From: a virus | Length of the DNA stretch: 64,000 nt | Reading direction: 5' to 3' (one strand) | IMG/VR virus record: IMGVR_UViG_3300045988_170943 | Location: 320,001-384,000 of that record | Shown here: in pieces, positions 1,007 through 40,590 of the stretch | How positions within the stretch are numbered: position 1 is the stretch's first letter | Layout of the letters: the number at the start of each line of letters is the position of its first letter | Notes under the pieces: model-generated | What the model saw: only the letters and a program-made list of their open reading frames with translations | Told to the model about the DNA's origin: nothing | Database searches by the model: none | Made by a program: the position numbers and the translations under genes

Positions 1007-3727
1007 ATGCGCCATATGACGGCTATCGACTTTGGGATCACAGACTCGGCCGCAACCCCCAAAAAGGAGGAGGCGGCCGAGTCGTTTCCGGTGCCATCAG
1101 ACAATGAGGTCATCGTCAAGACTGACGGCGAAAACATTGACCTATACAGTCGCCACAGTCTCGAAAACACAGACACCGCCAACAACCTGAAACCATTCCG
1201 CCGCATCGTAACCACCAGGGGTGTCAACCACTACCGGACCAGGCTCACTGAAGCGAACGCATTCACCCTCCGATACGGGCTTACTCGACTGGGGAAGCCG
1301 GTCCTGGATGAAGACACAAAACAGGCACTCAAGGGCAAAGCCGACACTGCACCTATGCCATACGCGACCCTGGACGCATCCGGCACCAAAGTCGTTGTCA
1401 CTATCCCACCAGTCCCGCACTACCTGGACATGATTGTCGGCACCATCAACGCCACATTCAAGGACGGTAAACGAGTATTCCCCATCTCCAGGCTACTTAA
1501 CCTCCAGGCCCTCCAAGATAACTATGATGGGCCTCTACCGCCTATCATCCTCAATGATGAGGTCGAACAGATCAACTCCGCCCCCATCCCCGGCTACGAC
1601 GGCACAGTCGAGTCTCTGAGAACCATACCCATCACCGTCCTCAACATTGTCCAGGCTGACATCCAGTCCGGTAAGGAGCGAGGCAAGTCCCGCAAGACAT
1701 TCGCCGAGAAGATGACAAAACTCGGGATCGAGACCCTACACGACCTCCTGTTCTGGGTGCCGCTACGTCACATCTCCAGGCGACACGACCAGGACCTCAC
1801 CGGCATCGTCGAAGGTGAAACAGTCACCATCCTCGGACGTATTCAGTCCATAACACCACTCAACGGGAAAGTCCCCGGAACCAGATTCACTATCACCACA
1901 GACACCGGCCAGGAACTCAAAGCCACCTACTTCAACCAGGCATGGCTCGCCCGAAAATTCAAGGTCGGTGACGAAGTAGTAGCCTCCGGCAAGTGGAAGC
2001 CTTGGAAAGGCACCCCACAGATCAACGGCTCCACCATGGACGCATCCAAGGAGGCGGAGATGATGCCAATCGTCCCCGTCTACCGACAACTACCCAGTAT
2101 CGGACTCACTAGCAGACTCATCCTGTCCGCCGTGAGAGAGATGCTTTCCAGACTCCCCCGGATCGATCCACCAAAGTACCTACAAGGCATACAGGTAGAC
2201 GGCAACAGCACCAGTTACCATGATGCTGTCACAGCCATGCACTTCTGTGAGGACGAGGACCAGTACGATGAGGCCACCGGACTGCTCGCACTCATCGAAG
2301 TCATCTACATGCAACTACTGATCCTCTCCAGCCAGGAAACCAACGCCAGTAAGCGCGCAGTCACCATCACCAGCGGTAGGGGCGGACTCCAGGCCGATGC
2401 CATTAAGGCACTACCATTCAACCTGACCAACGGGCAGAAGAAAGCCCTCGTCAGAATGAACCGGAAGATGGAGTCCACCACACCATCCTCCACCCTACTG
2501 AGCGCAGATGTCGGAGCCGGGAAAACAGTTGTCGCACAAATGACGGCAATGCGAGCCGTCGGCGCGGGAAAGCAGGCCGTCATGCTCGCCCCCACCGATG
2601 TGCTCGCCCGCCAACTGTATGAGTCCACCCTCAACGTCACCAGCAGGCTCAAAGAAAAGACCGGCCAAGACATTGAGGTCACCCTGTTCTCAGGCAGCAT
2701 GAAAGCCGCCCAGAAACGTGAGGCAAAGAAAACCATTGCGGACGGCACCTCACAGATCATCATCGGCACCCACGCCCTCCTATCCAATGATGTCGAGTAC
2801 CACGACTTGGGGTTCATCGCCGTTGATGAGCAGCAAAAGTTCGGTGTAGAACAACGAGAGCGCCTACTGAACTCCCGCTCAGACGGACTGATCCCCCACC
2901 TTATGACTATGACCGCCACCCCCATCCCCCGCAGTACCGCACAAGTGTTCTATGGGGGCATGGATCTCATCGAGTTGAAGGACAAGCCGCCCGGCCGCCT
3001 ACCCATCATCACTCAATGGATCCAGGAGAACCCCATCACCTTCAGTGAGCAGTCCATCAACCCTGTATGGGCTGACATCATCAACGAGGCCCACAAAGGC
3101 AATCAGACATTCGTTATCACCCCACTAGTCAGTGAGTCCAGCAAGGTAGATGCCGCCAGCGTAGACGCCACCACCAAGAACCTCACCAGCCTTCCCCTGT
3201 CTGGTCTCAAGGTAGGGAAAGTTCATGGACAGATGAAGCCCGACGAGCAGCGCAACATCATGCAACAGTTCCGAGACAAGAAGTTCGACGTCCTTGTCGC
3301 ATCCACAGTCGTCGAGGTCGGGGTGGACATCCCAGACGCAACCAGGGTCGTCATCCTGTCCGCAGAACGCCTTGGGGCCGCCTCTCTCCACCAAATCCGG
3401 GGCAGAGTAGGCAGAAACAGCAAACAGTCACGATGCTACCTCATCTCTGAAGGAACCACCAGCAGTGCACAGGCACGCATGAATGCGCTCGTTGACTCCA
3501 ACGATGGGTTCAAGATCGCCCAGAGTGACCTCGGACAGCGCGGTGAAGGGCGCATCTTCGGTACCCAGCAGTCCGGCAACACTGGCATGCTGTTCGCATC
3601 CGTTCTCGGCAGCATGGACAAGATCAGCCAGGCCCAAAAGGTAGCCAGAGATATTTTGGCGTCAGACAGCAGAGGACAAGCGCTAGCGGACGCCCACGCA
3701 TACTTCCACACTGACGAAGGAAAGTAG
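1007..3727 (+). CDS. RecG-like superfamily-2 DNA helicase with wedge/OB domain
   Basis: GAGKT Walker A with RecG-type context (AGKTVVA...LAPTDVLARQ), the VDEQQKFGVEQRE motif (RecG/Mfd DEQHRFG), an N-terminal wedge-like OB region and a C-terminal helicase domain. 906 aa. Confidence 0.75.
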   Translation: MRHMTAIDFGITDSAATPKKEEAAESFPVPSDNEVIVKTDGENIDLYSRHSLENTDTANNLKPFRRIVTTRGVNHYRTRLTEANAFTLRYGLTRLGKPVLDEDTKQALKGKADTAPMPYATLDASGTKVVVTIPPVPHYLDMIVGTINATFKDGKRVFPISRLLNLQALQDNYDGPLPPIILNDEVEQINSAPIPGYDGTVESLRTIPITVLNIVQADIQSGKERGKSRKTFAEKMTKLGIETLHDLLFWVPLRHISRRHDQDLTGIVEGETVTILGRIQSITPLNGKVPGTRFTITTDTGQELKATYFNQAWLARKFKVGDEVVASGKWKPWKGTPQINGSTMDASKEAEMMPIVPVYRQLPSIGLTSRLILSAVREMLSRLPRIDPPKYLQGIQVDGNSTSYHDAVTAMHFCEDEDQYDEATGLLALIEVIYMQLLILSSQETNASKRAVTITSGRGGLQADAIKALPFNLTNGQKKALVRMNRKMESTTPSSTLLSADVGAGKTVVAQMTAMRAVGAGKQAVMLAPTDVLARQLYESTLNVTSRLKEKTGQDIEVTLFSGSMKAAQKREAKKTIADGTSQIIIGTHALLSNDVEYHDLGFIAVDEQQKFGVEQRERLLNSRSDGLIPHLMTMTATPIPRSTAQVFYGGMDLIELKDKPPGRLPIITQWIQENPITFSEQSINPVWADIINEAHKGNQTFVITPLVSESSKVDAASVDATTKNLTSLPLSGLKVGKVHGQMKPDEQRNIMQQFRDKKFDVLVASTVVEVGVDIPDATRVVILSAERLGAASLHQIRGRVGRNSKQSRCYLISEGTTSSAQARMNALVDSNDGFKIAQSDLGQRGEGRIFGTQQSGNTGMLFASVLGSMDKISQAQKVARDILASDSRGQALADAHAYFHTDEGK

Positions 3728-21298: not shown

Positions 21299-21371
21299 CG
21301 GCGTGTAGCGCAGTTTGGTAGCGCACCTGTTTCGGGAACAGGGGCCACAGGTTCAAATCCTGTTACGCCGA
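21299..21371 (+). tRNA. tRNA-Pro(CGG)
   Basis: Cloverleaf: 7-bp acceptor, D arm gcgc/gcgc, anticodon loop ttCGGga, T arm acagg-ttcaaat-cctgt. No encoded CCA. Confidence 0.8.
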
Positions 21372-21425
21372 CGACGAGAACACTAAAAGGCGTCAACAAG
21401 CATGACAACAAGTGCTCTCACAAAT

Positions 21426-21510
21426 GTCACGGTAAAGCGTAACTGGTAGCGCGCCGGTCTGTAAAACCGGTCTGAAAGGTCTGTGGGTTCAAGTCCCACC
21501 CGTGGCACCA
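21426..21510 (+). tRNA. tRNA-Tyr(GUA), type II, CCA encoded
   Basis: Anticodon arm ccggt-ctGTAaa-accgg, long variable arm, T arm gtggg-ttcaagt-cccac, 3' ...gtggcACCA. Confidence 0.7.
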
Positions 21511-21511
21511 T

Positions 21512-21585
21512 TCTCCTGTAGTTTAATGGCAAAACAGGTGACTGTTAATCACTCATTTCAGGTTCGAATCCTGGCGGGAGAGCCA
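21512..21585 (+). tRNA. tRNA-Asn(GUU), CCA encoded
   Basis: D arm gttt/aaac, anticodon arm ggtga-ctGTTaa-tcact, T arm tcagg-ttcgaat-cctgg, acceptor tctcctg/cgggaga. Confidence 0.75.
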
Positions 21586-21649
21586 ATTACGAAACACAAG
21601 TTGCGGCACAACCTTCAACAAAATACAGGAACACGTGCCTACAACAAAT

Positions 21650-21732
21650 GCTCTTGTGGCGAAATGGTATACGCAGCAGACTTAAAATCTGTCTCCCTTG
21701 CGGGATTAAGGGTTCGAGTCCCTTCAGGAGCA
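21650..21732 (+). tRNA. tRNA-Leu(UAA), type II
   Basis: Anticodon arm gcaga-ctTAAaa-tctgt, long variable arm, T arm aaggg-ttcgagt-ccctt. Confidence 0.75.
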
Positions 21733-21734
21733 CG

Positions 21735-21819
21735 GTGTATGTGGTGGAATAGGTATACACACCAGGTTGTGGCCCTGGGTCCATATGGACACATGCGGGT
21801 TCGATCCCCGTCATACACC
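21735..21819 (+). tRNA. tRNA with GUG anticodon (His-like) carrying a long variable hairpin
   Basis: Acceptor gtgtatg/catacac perfect. Anticodon arm ccagg-ttGTGgc-cctgg. Extra hairpin gtccatatggac. T arm gcggg-ttcgatc-cccgt. The class-II-like arm is atypical for His. Confidence 0.55.
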
Positions 21820-22099
21820 CGATGGAAGCAAGTCCGGGCAACTGCTTTCTGACACATGAAGAGACGCGAGTGAAAATCTCGCTGGTTCCTACAATGGAGC
21901 CATAGTTTGTGAATGCAGTGAATGTGTTTGCAACAAGGTGCGACCGCAATCGAGTACATGTGGCGTTGCAACCACACGTACTACTCCTCCGCAAGAGGAG
22001 ACATCCTGCACAACGACTGACAGTACCAAAACACTTCATGCATCAAAAATAGAGATGCCAGAATGGCTACTATAAAGCCTTCAAAGTTGCTTCCACCAC

Positions 22100-22173
22100 T
22101 GGCGTGTGGCGCAGTAGGTTAGCGCGGCACTCTGATAAAGTGCAGGTCGTGAGTTCAAATCTCACCACGCCAA
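22100..22173 (+). tRNA. tRNA-Ile(GAU)
   Basis: Acceptor tggcgtg/cacgcca, D arm gcgc/gcgc, anticodon arm gcact-ctGATaa-agtgc, T arm gtgag-ttcaaat-ctcac. Confidence 0.8.
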
Positions 22174-22174
22174 C

Positions 22175-22258
22175 GGAGAAAATGGTAAAATTGGCTATCC
22201 AACCACCTCGAAAGTGGTGCCTGTAACAGGGCTGGGGGTTCGATTCCCTCTTTCTCCG
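22175..22258 (+). tRNA. tRNA-Ser(CGA), type II
   Basis: Acceptor ggagaaa/tttctcc, anticodon arm accac-ctCGAaa-gtggt, long variable arm gcctgtaacagggc, T arm ggggg-ttcgatt-ccctc. Confidence 0.75.
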
Positions 22259-22319
22259 CCGTGAATGAGTTGTCAGTAAGTGGCTTAATGACGTCATTTT
22301 GATAGGTACATTCATCAAT

Positions 22320-22410
22320 GCCCATGTAGTTCAATTGGACAGAACACTCCGCTACGGACGGAGAGGGAGCCGAAAGGCCATTGGGGGTTCAAGTCCCTCC
22401 ATGGGCACCA
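22320..22410 (+). tRNA. tRNA-Arg(ACG) with extended variable region, CCA encoded
   Basis: Acceptor gcccatg/catgggc, D arm gttc/gaac, anticodon arm ctccg-ctACGga-cggag, 19-nt variable region, T arm, ACCA. Confidence 0.65.
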
Positions 22411-22417
22411 CAACAAT

Positions 22418-22490
22418 GCCACCATAGTGTAAAGGATCCGCACAGGACTCTCCGAAGGTCCCAGTTCAGGTTCGACTCCTGATGGTGGCA
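22418..22490 (+). tRNA. tRNA-Arg(CCG)
   Basis: Acceptor gccacca/tggtggc, anticodon arm ggact-ctCCGaa-ggtcc, T arm tcagg-ttcgact-cctga. Confidence 0.75.
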
Positions 22491-22508
22491 CGAACTAGAC
22501 ACAATCTA

Positions 22509-22579
22509 CGTGGATTGGCCGAGAGGATAGGCGAGGGTCTGCAAAACCCTAGACACCAGTTCGAATCTGGTATCCACGT
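22509..22579 (+). tRNA. tRNA-Cys(GCA)
   Basis: Acceptor cgtggat/atccacg, anticodon arm agggt-ctGCAaa-accct, T arm accag-ttcgaat-ctggt. Confidence 0.7.
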
Positions 22580-22580
22580 C

Positions 22581-22677
22581 TGCGGGGTAGAGGAGTTCGG
22601 AGTCCTCGCTGGGCTCATATCCCAGAGAATCTACAACAAACCTTGTAGTGTCGCGGGTTCAAATCCCGCCCCCGCCA
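22581..22677 (+). tRNA. tRNA-Met(CAU) with initiator-like anticodon stem and a 1:72 mismatch, plus a long variable hairpin
   Basis: Anticodon arm ctggg-ctCATat-cccag (three G-C pairs as in tRNA-fMet), T1-C72 mismatch, extra hairpin ctacaacaaaccttgtag, T arm gcggg-ttcaaat-cccgc. Confidence 0.6.
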
Positions 22678-22971
22678 CGGGTCGATACCTTGCAAGAGGC
22701 GTTGACTAGGCTACTCTAATCCTACTATAAGAGTAGCAAAGCAATCGGTGAAACAGGCAAGTGGACCGCAGAACTTCTAGGGCGTCTAGAGAGTAATCTC
22801 TAGATACAGGTGATTTGTAGTTACTTGTCGTTATTCCCAATTGTGTAAGACCCTAGCGCTCTTTTTAAAATCCTTTGCGGTTTTTAAAAATATGTGAGTA
22901 ACCACCTGTACGACTTCTTCATAAGTGCAGAAGCCTATGCTGATGTAGGGTACATGTGGCAGGTGGACAAT

Positions 22972-23044
22972 GGTCATGTAACTCAGATGGTAGAGTACCT
23001 GAACGACACTCAGGAGGCCACAGGTTCAAGTCCTGTCATGACCA
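22972..23044 (+). tRNA. tRNA-Val(GAC)
   Basis: Acceptor ggtcatg/catgacc, D arm actc/gagt, anticodon arm cctga-acGACac-tcagg, T arm acagg-ttcaagt-cctgt. Confidence 0.7.
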
Positions 23045-23045
23045 C

Positions 23046-23128
23046 GGAAAGTAAGCGAATGGTTAGCGGCCGCTTTGGAACAGTGGTGCCTCGTTAAGGG
23101 GTTGTGGGTTCGAGTCCCGTGCTTTCCG
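23046..23128 (+). tRNA. tRNA-like gene, anticodon arm not resolvable (possible pseudo-tRNA)
   Basis: Good acceptor (ggaaagt/gctttcc) and T arm (gtggg-ttcgagt-cccgt), but no clean 5-bp anticodon stem. Contains a gcggccgc palindrome. Confidence 0.4.
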
Positions 23129-23186
23129 CTACAACAGCACCATAAATCCTACACTATCCTGTGACCCAACACACGCAGAAACACAG

Positions 23187-23216
23187 TTGACACACTACAA
23201 ACCCACATGGTATGCT
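23187..23216 (+). promoter_or_regulatory. promoter TTGACA-N18-TATGCT (extended -10 TGG)
   Basis: Consensus hexamers. Upstream of tRNA-Phe. Confidence 0.5.
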
Positions 23217-23236
23217 AGTGTCATCAAGCAAGGGAG

Positions 23237-23266
23237 TTGACAACCATGACACCCTCATGGTAAACT
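23237..23266 (+). promoter_or_regulatory. promoter TTGACA-N18-TAAACT (extended -10 TGG)
   Basis: Tandem with the promoter at 23187. Confidence 0.5.
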
Positions 23267-23306
23267 TCCTTCAAGCGTTGTTTGAGAACTAGATAGTGGT
23301 AGCATT

Positions 23307-23379
23307 GCCGACTTGGCTCAGTTGGAAGAGCGTCCGGTTGAAGCCCGGAAGGTCAAAGGTTCGATCCCTTTAGTCGGCA
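23307..23379 (+). tRNA. tRNA-Phe(GAA)
   Basis: Acceptor gccgact/agtcggc, D arm gctc/gagc, anticodon arm tccgg-ttGAAgc-ccgga, T arm aaagg-ttcgatc-ccttt. Confidence 0.85.
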
Positions 23380-24301
23380 CGACAGGCATGGCTGATAAAC
23401 CTAGGCGACTAGGCCAAAGGCTATCCCAACGGATGAGGGAAGCCACCCAACCTCCAGGAGGTAGGGCACCCCATGCAATATGCCGGGTTCTAAAGCGTGT
23501 GCCAGCAGATGGCGCACGAACCCCTAAGTGAGGCTCAGGCCCAATGGTAAATACTGAGGGCACGACCAAATCAGTCTCAATGAGCCAGTAACTCACGACA
23601 AGGTTAACCCGACATAAGGGAGAAACAAGTCCGAGACACGCAAAATCAAGGGCGGTCTCCCACCTGGAAACAAGGAAGACCTGATAAGTCTCCCACGTCG
23701 CCAGGAATGGAGCGGGTAGCGCCAATCCTAGAGAATGTGAGGACTTTCGTGGGCCAAAATCCCATGAACCTCTAGGGAAGCACATTCTCACAATCCTCAC
23801 AATAACAACGCAAAAGACTTCCCTGATTACTGGATGAAAATGTCCTAAACCTGACGGCCGTATGGTCAAGTCAGGCTGAGATGAGACCGCAAGTCTCACC
23901 CCAGTTGGGTAGACGGAAGTGCAACCCAGCAGGTCGCGTCTGCTGCGTGAAACATCCCACCCGAGTAGCCCAGTAATCTACAGAGTGATTCACTCAAAGA
24001 ATCGGGCATGACGTTCTAACACGGTACGCCTGGAAACAGGGTGCCATGTGGACAAGCAGGCAACACGGTAAACGTGGTAATCCTGACGAAAGGAACGTCG
24101 GAACAAGGTATAGTCTCAGCCTCATCACCTCAACTTACTTATGTGCCCCACAGAGTCTAGGGTTTCTGTGGTGGACCACCCACATGGAGTGGTTTCAGAC
24201 AACCAGCGGCACGACGAATCCAGTGGATAAACTGCCCATTAATACTATGGATTTTATCCTAAGGAGTAGTCATACCCTCAGCCATGTTCAAAACAACAAA
24301 T

Positions 24302-24376
24302 GGCCCTATGGTCCAGCCAGGTTAGGACGCCTCCCTGTCAAGGAGGAGATCGCCGGTTCAAATCCGGTTAGGGTCG
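24302..24376 (+). tRNA. tRNA-Asp(GUC)
   Basis: Acceptor ggcccta/tagggtc, D arm gtcc/ggac, anticodon arm cctcc-ctGTCaa-ggagg, T arm gccgg-ttcaaat-ccggt. Confidence 0.85.
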
Positions 24377-24413
24377 CTATCCCAGGTGGTGCGCAACAAG
24401 CCTGGGAACAAAT

Positions 24414-24486
24414 TGGCCTATAACTCAATTGGCAGAGTGATCCGCTGTTAACGGATTGGTTGAAAGTTCGAGTCTTTCTAGGCCAG
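24414..24486 (+). tRNA. tRNA-Asn(GUU), second copy
   Basis: Acceptor tggccta/taggcca, D arm actc/gagt, anticodon arm atccg-ctGTTaa-cggat, T arm gaaag-ttcgagt-ctttc. Confidence 0.75.
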
Positions 24487-24640
24487 CGCAAAGGTCACCC
24501 GGTTTGAGAGACCGTACTAGCAAAGCACAGTCAAAATAGGTTGGTGATCGCCTGACTCGTGTGCTGCCTGTCCTGAGTGTGCTCTCAACATGCTCGCAGT
24601 TACTTTATGGCCTGGCCTTGAGGATACGACCAGGTTACTT

Positions 24641-24732
24641 GGAGGGTTCGCATAGCCAGGTTTATTGCGCTCCCCTGCTAAGGGAGTAGGGCCTAAAAAC
24701 CCTCATGGGTTCAAATCCCATACCCTCCGCCA
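24641..24732 (+). tRNA. tRNA-Ser(GCU), type II, CCA encoded
   Basis: Acceptor ggagggt/accctcc, anticodon arm ctccc-ctGCTaa-gggag, variable arm gggcctaaaaaccc, T arm atggg-ttcaaat-cccat, GCCA. Confidence 0.8.
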
Positions 24733-24759
24733 TCACACATACAGCAAACATGTGTGAAT

Positions 24760-24834
24760 GCCCTGTTGGTCTAGTCTGGTTAGGATGCCTCCCTCTCAAG
24801 GAGGAGATCGCCGGTTCAAATCCGGTACAGGGTA
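24760..24834 (+). tRNA. tRNA-Glu(CUC)
   Basis: Acceptor gccctgt/acagggt, anticodon arm cctcc-ctCTCaa-ggagg, T arm gccgg-ttcaaat-ccggt. Confidence 0.8.
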
Positions 24835-25319
24835 CGCAGAAGAGGACTCCACACACGGTGCTCAACTAGCCGGGAGCCTGCACAGGTGCCCTCTGCCACC
24901 AAAATCACCTTTCTGTGAGGTCAGGGAGTAGTTACCCTGGGGCAGAAGGAAAGAATGGTGACAAGGTTTCATATCCTGTCCTCCACCTCCACAGCAGATT
25001 CTCTCAAGGGTACCTAATTTGGGAGAATTGAATCCTCCGGGACGTGTGACTGGGACGTGAGACCTCATGAATGTTCTAGACAGGAGGTCGTCTGGTGCCA
25101 TGGTGGTATGCGCATTAAAGATGGTTCGAATCCATCCACCAGATCTATTTCAAAACCTACCCGAAAGAAACCCTGGCGGCTTTGTGTACAGTGCCGCGCT
25201 ACCCAGGGCGTGCTTTTTCAGAGAAGAGTTCTGTACCACCTTTATTCATAAAAGAATAAAAGGTCGGCGAGACATTTTCTGAAAATGCTAGGGCAGGCTC
25301 GAAAACTGTACACATTAAC

Positions 25320-25410
25320 GCCCCTATAGCTCAGTTGGTAGAGCAGCGGACTTTTAATCCGATGGCAGGTCAATAACGACCGATCGTGGGTTCGAGCCCC
25401 ACTGGGGGCA
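25320..25410 (+). tRNA. tRNA-Lys(UUU) with an extra variable-region hairpin
   Basis: Acceptor gccccta/tgggggc, D arm gctc/gagc, anticodon arm (g)cgga-ctTTTaa-tccg(a), extra hairpin ggtcaataacgacc, T arm gtggg-ttcgagc-cccac. Confidence 0.65.
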
Positions 25411-25441
25411 CTATTTCAAGTGATTCGTTATAATGTGAATT

Positions 25442-26155
25442 ATGAACGAAGATTTGAAAGTATGTGGCATCTACGGCATTTTTGACACACTTACAGGAGA
25501 ATGCCTCTATGTAGGCCAGTCAAAGAACATTTATGAGCGCCGCCAATCTCATTTCAAGCGTCTTCGTGGAGAAAGACACCTTAAACCATTTACAGAATGG
25601 TTTGTCAGTATTGGAAAAGATGAGTCCAGACTGGATCTCAGGGTTCTTTGTAGATGTTTCGATAATGACGACATCAAGAACGAACTTGAAATCTTCTGGT
25701 TCAATGAACTTCACCCAAGATTCTACGGTGCTGTTCCGTCTGTCAACAACAGGTGGTCTCATTCAGAAGAGACTAGGAAGAAGATTGCTAGGAGGACATG
25801 TGAGTCTGAGCGACTTGGAAAGCATTATACATGTGCAGTGTACTATTACACATGTAAAATGTGTGACAAGTTTTTCGCCTCTTCAAGAAGGAAATCTAAA
25901 AAGCATATCTTCTGTTCAAAGCCATGCTCCCGCGCTTATGAAAAATCTCTGAAAATGGACACCCTTGATTACAACAGAGTTAAAAACTTGTATGAGTCTG
26001 GTGTTACTCAAGTGAAGATCGCTAAGGTGTTTGGTGTGTCGAATGCCACTGTCTCCAAGTTCATGAGAGACAATGGCATTTCTACAGGATACAAGCGTCA
26101 TGATCCTGGGCTGAAGAGGAAGTCTAGGAAGACAAGCAATGCGGATGTGGTGTAA
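25442..26155 (+). CDS. GIY-YIG homing endonuclease with C-terminal HTH DNA-binding domain
   Basis: GIYGIFD...YVGQSKNIYERRQSH GIY-YIG motif, a Zn-ribbon-like Cys pairs, and a C-terminal HTH (VTQVKIAKVFGVSNATVSKFM). Its 3' end overlaps the next tRNA by 15 nt. Confidence 0.8.
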   Translation: MNEDLKVCGIYGIFDTLTGECLYVGQSKNIYERRQSHFKRLRGERHLKPFTEWFVSIGKDESRLDLRVLCRCFDNDDIKNELEIFWFNELHPRFYGAVPSVNNRWSHSEETRKKIARRTCESERLGKHYTCAVYYYTCKMCDKFFASSRRKSKKHIFCSKPCSRAYEKSLKMDTLDYNRVKNLYESGVTQVKIAKVFGVSNATVSKFMRDNGISTGYKRHDPGLKRKSRKTSNADVV

Positions 26156-26214
26156 CGGTAGCACAAGACCCTTCCAAGGTTTTAGAGCGAGTTCGAGTCT
26201 CGTCATCCGCTCCA
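26141..26214 (+). tRNA. tRNA-Gly(UCC), CCA encoded
   Basis: Acceptor gcggatg/catccgc, anticodon arm agacc-ctTCCaa-ggttt, T arm gcgag-ttcgagt-ctcgt, TCCA. Confidence 0.75.
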
Positions 26215-26407
26215 GTCACTTTTTTGGCAGTCAGGAATACATGTGACCTAACTCATGTTTCCTGAGGTTGACTCACTCCTTGCTGGTGTGTTAGGATTGA
26301 GTCATCAAGCGGGGCAGGGGCGTTCTTCATAAGTCCTGGCGGCCATTGAGTCCAGAAATGGGAGCAGTGGTTTTAGAAGATTGTCAACTACATAGTGACT
26401 AAACAAT

Positions 26408-26480
26408 CCGCCTATAACTTAACTGGTTAGAGTACTTGCCTCTTAAGCTTGGAGTCCTGGTTCGAGTCCAGGTGGGCGGA
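26408..26480 (+). tRNA. tRNA-like gene with degenerate anticodon arm (anticodon undetermined)
   Basis: Acceptor ccgccta/tgggcgg and T arm cctgg-ttcgagt-ccagg are good. The region gcctcttaagctt has no regular 5-bp stem. Confidence 0.45.
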
Positions 26481-26736
26481 CGATCACCATAGCACCAGGT
26501 TTTGACGTGGCCGGTGCTGCCTCATCTAGTTTAATGACAGAACGCCGCGTGCTCACACATGCACGGGGAAGACAGGTTTGATTCCTGATTGGGGTTGTCG
26601 TTTGTGATTCAGGTCATGTGGGATTAAGATATGTGTGCACCCCTTGACTTGCACGTCAGCACTCACTTTTTAACATGCACAACAAGGTAAGTTTACTTCC
26701 GTTGATATTCCAACGGAAGTTAGGAGTCTTGTTTAT

Positions 26737-27366
26737 ATGGATGTTATATGTGGAGTTTATGCTATTTTTGATTCAAGTACAAATGAATGCTTGTATGTTG
26801 GCCAGTCAAGTAATGTGCTATTACGATTCAAGAAGCACTTGTATTTGTTAAAGTCAAGAAAGCATAGGAAGGATTTTGTGGCGTGGTTTGAAGATCGTAA
26901 TTTCGACGCTAAAGCCATTAGGTTTGAGATAATGGAGATATGCGATAATGAGGATAATATAAAAAACTCACTTGAAATAAAGTGGTTCAATGAGTTGTCT
27001 CCGAAATTTTATGGTCAAGTTCCATCCATGAATAGCAAGTGGTCTCATTCGGAAGAAACTATTTCTAAAATAAAAGATCACTCCCAAAGAGGGTGCAAGA
27101 TATTTTACTACGACTGCGAAAGTTGTGGTAAGGTTTTTATATCTAACAAAAGAAGATATAAGAAACATGTATTCTGTAGTGTGAAATGTAGTTCAAGCCA
27201 CTTTTCTATAGTTAACAAATTTGACTACGATACAATATCTGGTATGTATGCTAGTGGTATGACTCAATGTGAAATTGCGAAAGAACTCAATGTTTCAAAT
27301 ACGAGCATATCAAAATTTATGATGTTAAATGGAATCTCAACTGGATATTCCAAACACAAAAAATAG
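26737..27366 (+). CDS. GIY-YIG homing endonuclease, AT-rich paralogue of 25442..26155
   Basis: GVYAIFD...YVGQSSNVLLRFKKH, with the same domain order as the other GIY-YIG gene (FNELxPxFYGxVPSxNxxWSHSEET, C-terminal HTH ...SNTSISKFM). GC is far below the window average. Confidence 0.8.
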   Translation: MDVICGVYAIFDSSTNECLYVGQSSNVLLRFKKHLYLLKSRKHRKDFVAWFEDRNFDAKAIRFEIMEICDNEDNIKNSLEIKWFNELSPKFYGQVPSMNSKWSHSEETISKIKDHSQRGCKIFYYDCESCGKVFISNKRRYKKHVFCSVKCSSSHFSIVNKFDYDTISGMYASGMTQCEIAKELNVSNTSISKFMMLNGISTGYSKHKK

Positions 27367-27441
27367 CGGAATGTAGCTCAGGTGGTAGAGCGCTCGCTTT
27401 GGGAGCGAGAGGTTTCGCGGGTTCGAGCCCCGCCATTCCGA
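27367..27441 (+). tRNA. tRNA-Pro(UGG)
   Basis: Begins immediately after the GIY-YIG stop. Acceptor cggaatg/cattccg, D arm gctc/gagc, anticodon arm ctcgc-ttTGGga-gcgag, T arm gcggg-ttcgagc-cccgc. Confidence 0.8.
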
Positions 27442-27553
27442 CTGGGTGAACCGGAGGAGGGCCTATCCGCGGCATGGGCTTTCTTCCACATAGGAGTTGC
27501 TGTCAGTACTTGTGGACGCACAGGGTAGCGGGTGACCGAATGAGTATGGTGAG

Positions 27554-27622
27554 TGGCTTATAGTTTAATGGCAGAAGGCTCGACGGAAATCGAGTGGACA
27601 AGGTTCGATTCCTTTGAAGGCC
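27554..27622 (+). tRNA. tRNA-like gene with a 6- or 8-nt anticodon loop (acggaaat region)
   Basis: Acceptor ggcttat/gaaggcc (one mismatch) and T arm aagg-ttcgatt-cctt. The stem ctcga/tcgag encloses a 6-nt loop. Only 69 nt long. Confidence 0.35.
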
Positions 27623-27634
27623 AGCCCAATTTCT

Positions 27635-27719
27635 TGGTAGTGTGTGCCGAGTGGCGAAGGCAACTGACTGTAAATCAGCGACGTTAGAAACACCGGGGGT
27701 TCGACTCCCTCCACTACCA
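27635..27719 (+). tRNA. type II tRNA, most likely Tyr(GUA) (loop ctGTAaa)
   Basis: Acceptor ggtagtg/cactacc perfect, D arm tgcc/ggca, 4-bp anticodon stem ctga/tcag, 16-nt variable arm, T arm ggggg-ttcgact-ccctc. Confidence 0.55.
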
Positions 27720-27837
27720 CTGCTGTGCAAGAATCTCACGCAAAATTGGCTACCCGCGTGTGAACAGTGAGGGTTCGACTCCCTCATCGAGTGATTAGCC
27801 ATCTCGGGGCGGTCCCTGGTGCTTGCATGGTTTTCTT

Positions 27838-27910
27838 GGGGATGTAGCACAATTGGTGGTGCGCCTGCTTTGCAAGCAGATGGTTGCGGGTTCGAGTCCC
27901 GTCTTCTCCA
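27838..27910 (+). tRNA. tRNA-Ala(UGC)
   Basis: Acceptor ggggatg/cttctcc, D arm gcac/gtgc, anticodon arm (c)ctgc-ttTGCaa-gcag(a), T arm gcggg-ttcgagt-cccgt. Confidence 0.75.
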
Positions 27911-27967
27911 CAACCTTTCGGTAAATATTCCGTGAGGGTGAACATCTTTCAGAAGGGAAAGAGCAGT

Positions 27968-28204
27968 ATGGATCGCAAGCAGGCTCTAGAAGTTTTGGCA
28001 AGGGATTTCTCTGCTGGCAATACTGAGTGTGATGCCGATGAGTATATGTCGCTCGCAGAGGCATTCGATGGCTATGGGTTAGATTATGAAGATGACAATG
28101 ATGGCACCATTGATGGTTTTGCTAATAGTTTGCGCACTCTAGCCCGATCGATTCAGCCTAGTCATAGCGAAATTGATGAGGCTGTTAAGGTTCTTTCCTC
28201 TTGA
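27968..28204 (+). CDS. small acidic hypothetical protein (78 aa)
   Basis: ATG preceded by gaagggaaagag. The ORF-track version (27884) would start inside tRNA-Ala. Confidence 0.35.
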   Translation: MDRKQALEVLARDFSAGNTECDADEYMSLAEAFDGYGLDYEDDNDGTIDGFANSLRTLARSIQPSHSEIDEAVKVLSS

Positions 28205-28263
28205 CGAAAGTCTTCCTGTATTACGCTTGCATTTGAGATTTTTGGTAGGTGTGGTGCAGGTTT

Positions 28264-28339
28264 GCTCGCTTAACTCAGTTGGTAGAGTGGATCTCTTACA
28301 AGGATTTGGTCGGGGGTTCAAGTCCCTCAGCGAGCACCA
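28264..28339 (+). tRNA. tRNA-Val(UAC), CCA encoded
   Basis: Acceptor gctcgct/agcgagc, D arm actc/gagt, anticodon arm gatct-ctTACaa-ggatt, T arm ggggg-ttcaagt-ccctc, ACCA. Confidence 0.8.
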
Positions 28340-28347
28340 TTGCTTTT

Positions 28348-28419
28348 GCCGGTGTAGCCAAGTGGTAAGGCACCTCTCTCATAATGAGGTCATCGCTGGT
28401 TCGATTCCAGCCATCGGTA
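28348..28419 (+). tRNA. tRNA-Met(CAU), elongator or Ile2-type
   Basis: Acceptor gccggtg/catcggt, anticodon arm cctct-ctCATaa-tgagg, T arm gctgg-ttcgatt-ccagc. Confidence 0.75.
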
Positions 28420-28424
28420 CTTAT

Positions 28425-28495
28425 TCCCCCTTGGTGTAGTGGCAGCACAACCGACTTTGGATCGGTTAGCCTAGGTTCGAGTCCTGGCGGGGGAG
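28425..28495 (+). tRNA. tRNA-Gln(UUG)
   Basis: D arm gtgt/gcac, anticodon arm accga-ctTTGga-tcggt, T arm ctagg-ttcgagt-cctgg. Confidence 0.7.
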
Positions 28496-28537
28496 CGACG
28501 CTGTGGCGTGCTTTTTGGGGTGCGTGTTGGCGTTCTT

Positions 28538-28609
28538 TGCCTCTTAGTGTAATTGGTAGCACGACTGATTCTGGTTCAGTTATTCTAGGTTCGAGTCCTG
28601 GAGGGGCAG
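28538..28609 (+). tRNA. tRNA-Gln(CUG)
   Basis: Paralogue of the previous tRNA. Anticodon arm actga-ttCTGgt-tcagt, acceptor tgcctct/aggggca. Confidence 0.7.
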
Positions 28610-28989
28610 CGATGTGAGATGGTTTCAACTGGTGCTGGTGGGCCTAGTGTTTTCAGGGTTCCTTTCCAGTTCATGACCTTGGATGACGCGACGTTTTGTT
28701 TGCGCCACGTTGCTATACTGTCTCATATTCTCCCAGTTTGCCTGACACTGGGGTCTAGGAAGTCGGGTGTCTAGCGTAGAGACCGTCCCGCTGGTAGGGC
28801 GGCGAGCCGGTTGTCATGAAGCCGGTACTTTTGCTCACGGGTTGCGCTAGTTGCCGGGCATTAGTGGACTTTGCTTGGTTTTGTGGGAAGTGGTGGAAGT
28901 TGGACGTTCTGCTGCGATTTTGTTTTCTGGTGTCACCTGCTCTTGTTAGACTTATTCCTCCTCTTGCGGGGTGGGTGGCGCCGGAATAT

Positions 28990-29061
28990 GCAGATGTGGT
29001 GTTAATGGTAGCACGCGACCTTGCCATGGTTGTAGAGCGGGTTCGAGTCCCGTCGTCTGCT
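28990..29061 (+). tRNA. tRNA-Gly(GCC)
   Basis: Acceptor gcagatg/cgtctgc, anticodon arm cgacc-ttGCCat-ggttg, T arm gcggg-ttcgagt-cccgt. Confidence 0.75.
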
Positions 29062-29190
29062 CGGAGTTCATGGAGATGTGTAGTGGTTTGGTTACTTCAT
29101 ATTTGGGTTATGTATTGCACCGGATTACGTCTTTTCTCTCTGTGTCTCTTTTTCTTGATCCTGTCACGTTCTTGTGGCAGGGTTATTGTT

Positions 29191-29266
29191 TCCGGGTGAC
29201 GCTATTGGCTTTTAGCGGGTGATCTCCAAAGTCACTGTCATTGGGGTTCGATTCCTCCACCCGGGG
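29191..29266 (+). tRNA. tRNA-Trp(CCA)
   Basis: Acceptor tccgggt/acccggg, D arm cgct/agcg, anticodon arm gtgat-ctCCAaa-gtcac, T arm (t)gggg-ttcgatt-cctc(c). Confidence 0.7.
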
Positions 29267-29660
29267 CGGGCTGCTCATGGCCTGAAACTGTTGGGTGATT
29301 GATGTGTTCTTTCATTCTCAGTGTTTTAGGTTGTGGGTCGTTCATTGGGCATTGAGGTTCTTCCACGGTTCATGGGCGGCTGGTGCTCTTGAGCAACGCA
29401 TTGCGATGATGTTAGTGAACTCCATCTGGTGTGTTGTGCTGCTGCGGCACAAGGGGACCTTCGCAGTTGCCTCTTGTGTGGTTCCCTGTGCTGTTCGAAG
29501 TGGTTGACAATACGGGGTGCGGTCGGGTTTATGCTGACAAGACCTGTCCGCCACACGGAGGCTTGCTGGTAGCAACAGTAAAGCACGCTTCCCTTTGATG
29601 CTGCGAGTGTGTGCTGTGGTCGCTCGTCAATCGTGTGTTTGATTCTTTGGGGCCCTTTTT

Positions 29661-29733
29661 GGGGATGTAGCACAACTGGTAGTGCGTCCGCTTGGCTTGC
29701 GGGAGGTTACGGGTTCGAGTCCCGTCTTCTCCA
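29661..29733 (+). tRNA. tRNA-Ala(GGC)
   Basis: Paralogue of tRNA-Ala(UGC), sharing its acceptor and D arm. Anticodon arm tccgc-ttGGCtt-gcggg. Confidence 0.75.
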
Positions 29734-40206: not shown

Positions 40207-40582
40207 GGGGCAGACAGGTATTCGACATGCGATGCTTGCTTGTGTTGAGTGCGAGCCACCCTTGAACCATGGGTGTCAAACAGGTTCAAACCAACAGTTG
40301 CCAACTCTGACAACTTCGCTCTCGCCGCCTGAGAGCCGCCTGAATCCCACAAGGTAAGGCCCTGCCGGGACTCAATTCAGGTGTTATCGCTAGGGGCTAT
40401 GGTCAAGCGCCTGTCACCTGGGTGCGGGCCGAGAAACTAAACAGGTGACAACCAGGGTTGTGGTAGTCATGCAGGACCATTCCAAACCTTACATGGTTGT
40501 AAAACACTAACGGATCCTGCTACGCTCGTAGAACTTAAAACAGGCACATTCTTGGACGAGGGTTCGATTCCCTCCTGCTCCA
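40207..40582 (+). ncRNA. ssrA: tmRNA (ssrA) with tag reading frame ANSDNFALAA-stop
   Basis: 5' GGGGCAGACAGGTATTCGACATGCG (tmRNA 5' acceptor and D analogue). 3' GGACGAGGGTTCGATTCCCTCCTGCTCCA (T arm plus acceptor pairing with the 5' end). Internal frame GCC AAC TCT GAC AAC TTC GCT CTC GCC GCC TGA at 40300..40332. Confidence 0.8.
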
Positions 40583-40590
40583 CTATCCAA

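Follow-up and report, generated by a model that had tools for sequence, protein, structure and literature searches.

Two endonuclease genes in a phage tRNA array

The stretch analysed here, called the window throughout, is 64,000 nucleotides (nt) of viral DNA (positions 320,001 to 384,000 of the IMG/VR record IMGVR_UViG_3300045988_170943) and contains, according to ARAGORN, an array of 44 tRNAs and a transfer-messenger RNA (tmRNA). Inside this array lie two intact genes for GIY-YIG proteins, HEG1 and HEG2. An initial annotation, made from the sequence alone, had described them as two paralogous GIY-YIG homing endonucleases within a tRNA array, and this description held, as both have Pfam matches and they share 46% identity. 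We consider nuclease-driven homing at the 5' edges of tRNA genes, with co-conversion of the adjoining sequence, to be the best explanation of what is found at this locus and very probably the right one; recent homing activity is best evidenced for HEG2. The locus is made up as follows.

25320..25411, + strand: tRNA-Lys(UUU), a 92-nt allele with a long extra arm, directly upstream of HEG1 (ARAGORN; Rfam tRNA 63.4 bits)
25412..25441, + strand: HEG1 leader, 30 nt with a G+C content (GC) of 23%, TATAAT at 25429-25434 and no clear Shine-Dalgarno sequence seen
25442..26155, + strand: HEG1, an intact gene for an endonuclease of 237 amino acids (aa) with GIY-YIG, NUMOD3-like, four-cysteine zinc finger and helix-turn-helix (HTH) parts
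26141..26214, + strand: tRNA-Gly(UCC), which starts GCGGATGTGG and whose 5' edge is the right border of the HEG1 cassette
26408..26481, + strand: tRNA-Lys(CUU), one among several very divergent alleles (between-strain identity down to 62%, acceptor stem kept)
26482..26661, + strand: conserved spacer, delimited from alignments, which ends at the left HEG2 insertion junction (...CACGTCAG)
26662..26736, + strand: HEG2 leader, part of the inserted cassette, with a 10-bp perfect hairpin (26695-26704/26711-26720) and AGGAG at 26722-26726
26664..27525, + strand: identical tract of 862 nt, with 100% identity between the window and contigs L004/L005, bounded by mismatch positions
26737..27366, + strand: HEG2, an intact gene for a 209-aa endonuclease with GIY-YIG, NUMOD3-like, four-cysteine zinc finger and HTH parts
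27367..27442, + strand: tRNA-Pro(UGG), allele C, which directly follows the HEG2 stop codon and is part of the co-transferred tract

An exact protein look-up placed the HEG1 and HEG2 proteins on the 418,686-bp metagenomic contig ERZ27262911, and several other assemblies contain near-identical or related copies, the label of one of these assemblies being human oral metagenome. Close relatives occur in human oral metagenomes. The phage is one of roughly 400 kb, and IMG/VR contains at least 16 contigs related to it, with lengths of up to 398 kb. Comparisons between strains were made on about 40 related contigs (given L numbers here), found by three routes: a look-up of the exact proteins, the CCA enzyme, and a 30-mer taken from the invariant spacer that separates HEG1 from HEG2. 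Among GenBank phages, megablast of 24800-28000 returned short tRNA matches only and tblastn with HEG1 returned nothing, suggesting that no deposited or cultured relative is to be found there by these searches.

The tRNA positions given in the initial annotation were confirmed: tRNA-Gly(UCC) starts at 26141 and HEG1 ends at 26155, an overlap of 15 nt, and the HEG2 stop codon ends at 27366 with tRNA-Pro(UGG) starting at 27367, the two abutting with zero gap. The 92-nt tRNA-Lys(UUU) folds as a cloverleaf plus extra arm, and relatives have armless 74/76-nt alleles. The HEG1 leader is kept alongside its open reading frame (ORF) in all HEG1 carriers and also in an unrelated phage contig, L104. The HEG2 leader is missing from all empty alleles, and its hairpin has a folding energy of -14.6 kcal/mol (z -3.25). 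A promoter and terminator scan of 25000-27700 gave counts not above those of shuffled sequence.

A modular build like that of I-TevI

Both proteins exceed the Pfam cut-off for GIY-YIG (PF01541; E 4e-7 for HEG1 and 6e-10 for HEG2), and HTH_7 is matched above cut-off by HEG1 and at 19.8 bits, under the 23.8-bit cut-off, by HEG2. In BLASTP the two proteins align over 214 aa (E 9e-70), and their domain order is shared, as the initial annotation had stated; its 'long identical stretches', however, come down to runs of 8 aa (ECLYVGQS) and 7 aa (WSHSEET and NGISTGY). An alignment of HEG1, HEG2 and a 95% HEG2 variant brings out a three-part layout, with a GIY...YVG/R30/H34/E80 catalytic set, a middle part that holds the NUMOD3-like motif WSHSEET(x)KI and cysteines C127, C130, C147 and C151, and a C-terminal HTH. 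Across 40 family members G22, R30, H34, N77, E80 and three of the four cysteines are invariant, and Y8, Y20 and the remaining cysteine are at least 90% conserved.

The catalytic residues Y8, Y20, R30, H34 and E80 align to Y6, Y17, R27, H31 and E75 of I-TevI, the GIY-YIG endonuclease of the phage T4 td group I intron. Among solved structures the closest is its catalytic domain, both by sequence (best match in the PDB, E 1.2e-3) and by predicted fold, the AlphaFold2 model of HEG2 (predicted local distance difference test score, pLDDT, 89) matching 1MK0/1LN0 with a template modelling (TM) score of 0.80 and a probability of 1.0. This model also has a beta-hairpin finger and a helical C-terminal domain, and the succession of catalytic domain, linker with zinc finger and C-terminal HTH is likewise that of I-TevI. 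Unlike I-TevI, however, neither protein is intron-encoded: an Rfam search detected no intron at the HEG genes, which therefore appear to be free-standing. The group I intron endonuclease model TIGR01453 aligns over its full length, yet the two scores, 25.5 and 25.4 bits, lie below its cut-off of 56.05, suggesting that HEG1 and HEG2 are related to this subfamily in layout and lie outside it. Overall, the two may be described as predicted homing-endonuclease-type genes of the GIY-YIG class with an I-TevI-like modular build.

To survey the family we used an exhaustive HMMER search, in place of a word-indexed protein search with HEG2 that gave only its own 95% cluster. With a threshold of E<=1e-3 it returned 3,223 homologues, and with one of E<=1e-30 there were 115 clusters, mostly full length. 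A neighbour-joining tree groups HEG2 with the HEG1 clade as its sister, for which support is moderate (66/100 bootstraps); the HEG1-like protein of L104 (P0002/L104) falls within the HEG1 clade, nearer to HEG1 than HEG2 is, and HEG3, a further GIY-YIG protein found in relatives, is distant. That the pair arose by a recent duplication within the genome was rejected on the basis of their 46% identity, the only moderate sister support and the position of P0002/L104.

HEG2 is sporadic and one haplotype has spread recently

The interval from tRNA-Lys(CUU) to tRNA-Pro measures 885 nt in HEG2 carriers against 182-185 nt or 280 nt in non-carriers. At the occupied site 705 nt (26662..27366) replace TTTT between ...CACGTCAG and CGGAATG..., the start of tRNA-Pro. 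The empty junction reads ...CTTGCACGTCAGTTTTCGGAATGTAGCTCAGG..., and in L070, an empty contig with tRNA-Pro allele C, the site reads ...CTTGCACGTCAG-TTTT-CGGAATGTAGC.... Since L070 shares its tRNA-Pro allele with the window, the HEG2 junction is exact. Counted by distinct haplotype the site is occupied in three (plus L072) and empty in 19, the nearest relatives among them, and L062 and L074 lack HEG2 although their HEG1 is 97% identical to that of the window.

The exact HEG2 protein occurs on 19 contigs, and among the carriers L004-L011 there are 0 differences in 630 nt. The left end of the identical tract lies at 26648 in L006-L008 (26664 in L004/L005), and just outside the tract the strains diverge by 5-12%, with tRNA-Lys(CUU) up to 35% different. 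At the overall identity between the window and L004 (92.2% over 5,987 nt), about 67 differences would be expected in the 862-nt tract, and none was observed. Indeed, synonymous divergence (dS) between these two is 0 for HEG2 as against 0.118 for SNF2, 0.231 for Ro60, 0.278 for the CCA enzyme and 0.565 for HEG1. The same HEG2 haplotype is found on three backgrounds, namely with a window-type HEG1, with an L004-type HEG1 and without HEG1. The recent invasion proposed in the initial annotation thus stands for HEG2, which is unchanged between strains whose neighbouring genes have a dS of 0.12-0.28.

A second HEG2 haplotype at the same site (L072; P0001 cluster) differs at 40 of 630 positions (6%), 27 of them third codon positions. 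The existence of this divergent haplotype means that the HEG2 element is not brand new, though one haplotype spread very recently. The identical tract reaches 159 nt to the right of HEG2, past tRNA-Pro, and at most 15 nt leftwards; under a double-strand-break repair model this asymmetry would place the break in or just beyond tRNA-Pro. As judged from the alignments, the HEG2 pattern fits recent homing with co-conversion.

HEG1 is an old resident

Of 21 distinct haplotypes 20 contain HEG1, always between tRNA-Lys(UUU) and tRNA-Gly(UCC), and a recent invasion, which the initial annotation had proposed for it too, does not hold. The relatives carry 20 distinct alleles of 227-275 aa that differ mostly by indels in a linker of hypervariable length, and one further copy, in L066, is frameshifted. 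The ratio of nonsynonymous to synonymous divergence (dN/dS) lies between 0.09 and 0.22, for dS values that reach beyond 1. The initial annotation had itself named similar composition in all relatives as the mark of an old, ameliorated insertion, and the synteny comparison found just this for HEG1, with a GC of 0.39-0.44 across all alleles in nearly all relatives. It is this similar intermediate GC, together with near-universal presence, that makes HEG1 an old insertion. The interval between the two tRNA genes is 723-845 nt when occupied as against 193 nt in the HEG1-less contigs L006-L008, in which homology to the window breaks at 25360, inside tRNA-Lys(UUU), and resumes at 26135.

The unrelated phage contig L104, which has SLH-domain and M78 peptidase genes, carries a HEG1-like gene at 2862..3628 with 58% aa identity. 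Its similarity to the window is confined to the cassette, including a similar leader, and to short stretches of the two flanking tRNAs (40 nt at the 3' end of tRNA-Lys, 26 nt at the 5' end of tRNA-Gly), the footprint of an old transfer that took its flanks along. HEG1 is therefore an old, nearly fixed relative of HEG2 that is maintained under purifying selection.

Further sites and the link of the family to tRNA arrays

The initial annotation had also suggested repeated invasion of the tRNA island, and this is borne out by four polymorphic GIY-YIG sites in the array of this phage clade. Those of HEG3 and HEG4 are empty in the window.

24122..24402, + strand: empty HEG3 site, a segment including tRNA-Asp; in some relatives it is replaced by HEG3 and a divergent tRNA-Asp-like sequence
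27912..28263, + strand: empty HEG4 site between tRNA-Ala(UGC) and tRNA-Val(UAC), containing a 78-aa ORF (27968..28204)

HEG3 (2032..2808 of L036, upstream of a tRNA-Asp-like sequence; GC 0.377) is present in 4 haplotypes and absent from 16, and HEG4 (7331..8290 of L012; GC 0.369) is present in 8 and absent from 12, the lengths of the tRNA-Ala(UGC)/tRNA-Val(UAC) spacer being bimodal (345-355 vs 1010-1020 nt). HEG4 matches Pfam SegE_GIY-YIG (28.9 bits, cut-off 25) and, right at its 24.6-bit cut-off, HTH_23, whereas HEG1 and HEG2 match the general GIY-YIG model only.

All nine distant family members that were sampled lie inside phage tRNA arrays on the tRNA strand, at least two of them overlapping the downstream tRNA by 24-30 nt as HEG1 does, and all nine are AT-richer than the rest of their locus. 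These loci suggest that members of the HEG family are placed just upstream of a tRNA gene, on the same strand, inside phage tRNA arrays. A phage contig of about 33% GC has two tandem GIY-YIG genes in its tRNA array (L099, 551..2604), so that the paired arrangement is not unique to this phage. Among the 44 tRNAs of the window only tRNA-Gly(UCC) and tRNA-Pro(UGG), those directly downstream of HEG1 and HEG2, start with CGGA(A)TGT[AG]G. This is suggestive, though not proof, of a recognition of related acceptor/D-arm sequences by the two enzymes.

Base composition and the question of a donor

The contrast in composition noted in the initial annotation was confirmed by an analysis of GC at third codon positions (GC3). 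HEG2 has a GC of 0.332 (GC3 0.343) and HEG1 of 0.420 (GC3 0.454), against 0.548 for the window and 0.519-0.614 (GC3 0.511-0.800) for its 35 other long ORFs, making both genes clear outliers. Across the three codon positions HEG2 is flat (0.319/0.333/0.343), whereas in HEG1 the GC3 exceeds GC1/GC2 (0.42/0.391), and in host genes GC3 is about 25 points above GC2. Codon positions and population data together fit a long residence with partial amelioration for HEG1, whose GC3 has started to move up to that of the genome, and a short residence for HEG2.

The lower-GC source invoked in the initial annotation proved untraceable. Neither IMG/VR nor a 1.84-billion representative set contained a HEG2 homologue above about 47% full-length identity outside its own cluster, and for want of such a homologue the tracing of a donor failed; HEG2 was likewise not in the 21 kb examined of L015 and L016, more distant phage relatives of 33-41% GC. 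As AT-richness occurs in all nine distant members, in phages of varied GC, it may be a family trait rather than a donor signature. We therefore give an even chance to the alternative that low GC is intrinsic to these genes, which encode Lys/Asn/Ile/Tyr-rich DNA-binding proteins and are perhaps selected for low expression, and that the difference between 42% and 33% records residence time rather than two sources. All sampled members are indeed AT-richer than their flanks, whatever the GC of these (0.33 to 0.51), though the flanks are tRNA-rich and their GC is thereby inflated. HEG3 and HEG4 are also low in GC, HEG1 has stayed at 0.39-0.44 in 20 alleles despite its long residence in a 55% GC genome, and the flat profile of HEG2 beside the raised GC3 of HEG1 is what partial amelioration predicts. 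L015 and L016, on the other hand, could be donors by their GC, and a close HEG2 homologue in a donor was found neither way.

How the pattern may have arisen

Under nuclease-driven homing, the explanation we favour, a carrier and a non-carrier phage would co-infect one cell, and the enzyme would cut the empty allele at or near the tRNA 5' edge. Repair of the break from the carrier genome would then copy in the nuclease gene together with adjacent sequence, and the carrier itself would be protected because the insertion splits its spacer/tRNA junction. Among the observations that speak for this are presence and absence at one fixed site among close relatives, with a sharp junction for HEG2 and variability at HEG1 as well, and co-conversion, seen in the HEG2 tract that runs past tRNA-Pro and in the L104 cassette with its fragments of both flanking tRNAs.

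Several observations weigh against it. Mosaicism extends over the entire tRNA array, and divergent tRNA alleles are found at a great distance from the HEGs too, so that ordinary recombination between tRNA genes also moves segments here. The sole HEG1-less allele (L006-L008) has an unrelated spacer between the same two tRNA genes, a replacement rather than a clean empty site, and gain and loss are therefore indistinguishable there. tRNA-Pro allele C, found in all HEG2 carriers, is also found in three empty contigs (L036, L045 and L070). The HEG2 contigs were retrieved by exact protein match, which biases the sample to identical copies, although such a bias does not explain the zero synonymous and flanking differences. 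Finally, the recognition and cut sites would be located solely by the junctions and the extent of the identical tract.

A rival reading takes the nuclease genes to be inactive cargo. Ordinary homologous recombination when strains co-infect, at the many tRNA genes conserved between them, would then account for the presence/absence patterns and the identical tract. In its favour, mosaicism and highly divergent tRNA alleles are not limited to the surroundings of the HEGs, the HEG1-less allele is a replacement instead of a precise excision, and the HEG1 of L004 is nucleotide-identical to that of L012 although other genes of these two differ. We nevertheless regard this as improbable. The catalytic residues and zinc finger are conserved, purifying selection acts on HEG1 and on the two HEG2 haplotypes (with 27 of the 40 differences at third positions), and four different GIY-YIG genes each lie at a tRNA 5' edge; the link of the whole family to tRNA arrays (9/9) is also hard to explain for inert cargo. 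A different possibility, which can coexist with homing and to which we give some but clearly lesser weight, is that one or both enzymes, HEG1 especially, have been domesticated for a benefit to the phage, either by excluding the tRNA regions of competitors in mixed infections or by triggering segmental amplification of tRNA genes against host defences that cleave tRNA, as reported for SegB. HEG1 is nearly fixed and under the constraint described above despite its high dS, and a purely selfish element at fixation would be expected to decay, the L066 copy being the sole frameshifted one seen; furthermore, SegB promotes tRNA-Tyr amplification against Septu, and an enrichment near tRNAs is known for its homologues (PMC13096335). 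The tRNA lists of the window and its relatives, however, show no segments amplified in tandem, and continual re-invasion in a polymorphic population can also keep an ORF intact.

Two further ideas were dropped. As allele C is not exclusive to carriers, a 'resistant tRNA allele' is not demonstrated, and the idea of a cleavage-resistant tRNA allele private to HEG carriers was given up; at HEG1, the short tRNA-Lys(UUU) allele of the HEG1-less contigs is likewise found in several HEG1 carriers. A concentration of tRNA hypervariability beside the HEGs was also rejected, mean pairwise identity being 0.84-0.94 for HEG-adjacent tRNAs and 0.77-0.98 for the rest.

Relation to T4 SegB and other homing systems

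SegB of phage T4 is a GIY-YIG enzyme encoded in the tRNA cluster that cuts tRNA genes at a TpsiC-motif site and is inherited at nearly 100% in mixed infections or crosses (PMC2330249), and a 2026 study found SegB homologues to be statistically enriched near tRNAs across phages (PMC13096335). The likeness to segB drawn in the initial annotation survives as an analogy. HEG1 and HEG2, too, combine a GIY-YIG enzyme with a NUMOD3 motif and are encoded between tRNA genes on the same strand, and like segB (PMC2330249) the genes are missing from otherwise homologous tRNA regions of close relatives and spread with neighbouring tRNA sequence. Homology to SegB, however, was not found: the BLASTP similarity (E 0.12) is confined to an 11-aa NUMOD3-like stretch, and hhalign of a 40-sequence profile against SegB gave a probability of 0.7%, with a sensitivity limited by the single-sequence template. 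The four-cysteine finger and C-terminal HTH of the HEGs had no match in SegB in these comparisons. Whereas SegB targets the conserved TpsiC stem-loop (GGTTCRANTCC), the shared 5' motif CGGA(A)TGT[AG]G would point to the acceptor/D-arm side, and, unlike T4, the host here is a phage of about 400 kb with 55% GC, 44 tRNAs and an array with up to four different GIY-YIG genes. The arrangement thus appears analogous to T4 segB and not detectably homologous.

The genes also resemble T4-type Seg proteins such as SegE and the systems of 'intronless homing', in which free-standing intergenic GIY-YIG genes vary among relatives and flanking markers are co-converted. Unlike other Seg proteins, HEG1 and HEG2 are inserted precisely at tRNA 5' edges, and the end of the ORF can overlap the tRNA. 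For HEG1, whose last five codons and stop lie inside tRNA-Gly, processing by RNase P would remove the stop codon, and synthesis of the nuclease would then be limited to unprocessed transcripts.

It is an unlikely extension that there is a SegB-distinct GIY-YIG clade, specialised on tRNA arrays across many phage lineages, which inserts exactly at tRNA 5' edges with ORF ends that often enter the tRNA. Were this true, RNase P maturation of the downstream tRNA and a stop-bearing nuclease mRNA would be mutually exclusive, giving a built-in dosage throttle. The phage also has a tmRNA of its own. Moreover, HEG1 and HEG2, as paralogues, would have related acceptor/D-arm sequences (CGGA(A)TGTRG) as their targets, several nucleases would drive allelic turnover and possibly amplification of tRNAs in huge phages, and selfish homing would be linked to the evasion of host tRNA-targeting defences.

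Phage homing endonucleases in tRNA clusters have been known since SegB, and their tRNA association was surveyed in 2026 (PMC13096335). The current understanding is therefore unchanged, and the value of this locus is that of a well-resolved natural example of a known process, not of a new one. One population of a huge oral phage would here display the life cycle of homing endonucleases, naturally and without culture, as a single tRNA array (relatives included) holds an old and nearly fixed HEG1, a spreading HEG2, HEG3 and HEG4 at intermediate frequency, and a decaying copy in L066. The defined empty and occupied junctions are directly synthesisable substrates for cleavage tests. The locus also points to a large family of tRNA-array-associated GIY-YIG proteins, 115 clusters strong at the threshold given above and not detectably SegB, that could supply new nuclease domains of the I-TevI kind and DNA-binding modules specific for tRNA genes.

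Other features of the tRNA island

Between strains whose protein genes have 88-97% aa identity, the tRNA alleles across the array (21299..29734) differ by as much as 35-45%; the divergent alleles retain their acceptor stems and show compensated changes in the arms. Four tRNAs, of 91-98 nt, have a long extra arm that is unusual for these isotypes, and all fold as cloverleaves: tRNA-Lys(UUU) at 25320..25411, tRNA-Arg(ACG) at 22320..22410, tRNA-Met at 22581..22678 and tRNA-Ile(UAU) at 35489..35582 (+ strand). The arm is polymorphic in tRNA-Lys and tRNA-Met, for which relatives have ordinary alleles of 74-78 nt. In the spacer at 26482-26661 about 100 nt are invariant across strains despite the variable flanking tRNA genes. 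A structured RNA was rejected there, folding stability not being in excess (z 0.37), and the spacer, which contains the TpsiC-arm-like AGGTTTGATTCCT, may be a tRNA relic.

Inside the array, at 23730..24122 (+ strand) between tRNA-Phe and tRNA-Asp, Rfam gives a match over the full GOLLD RNA model (E 1e-39; 147.5 bits, where the gathering score is 150), and the sequence shows about 77% conservation in L036. AT skew is very strong and opposite in two regions: at 16-20 kb it is about +0.4, and the region at 28-30 kb has -0.3 to -0.4 together with a positive GC skew. The latter region has several inter-tRNA spacers of 380-520 nt without a convincing ORF.

The neighbouring genes are those typical of a phage replication module, with ribonucleotide reductases, helicases, DNA polymerase, topoisomerase II and a terminase-like protein. 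The island further includes a CCA-adding enzyme, a Ro60/TROVE protein and a tmRNA with the tag ANSDNFALAA. Between the Ro60 gene and tRNA-Leu there is a weak match to signal recognition particle (SRP)-like RNA (37.1 bits against a gathering score of 40), and this RNA could be a Y-RNA-like partner of Ro60. These features, the SRP-like match included, lie in the window at 30251..31774, 32596..34197, 34277..34350 and 40207..40583.

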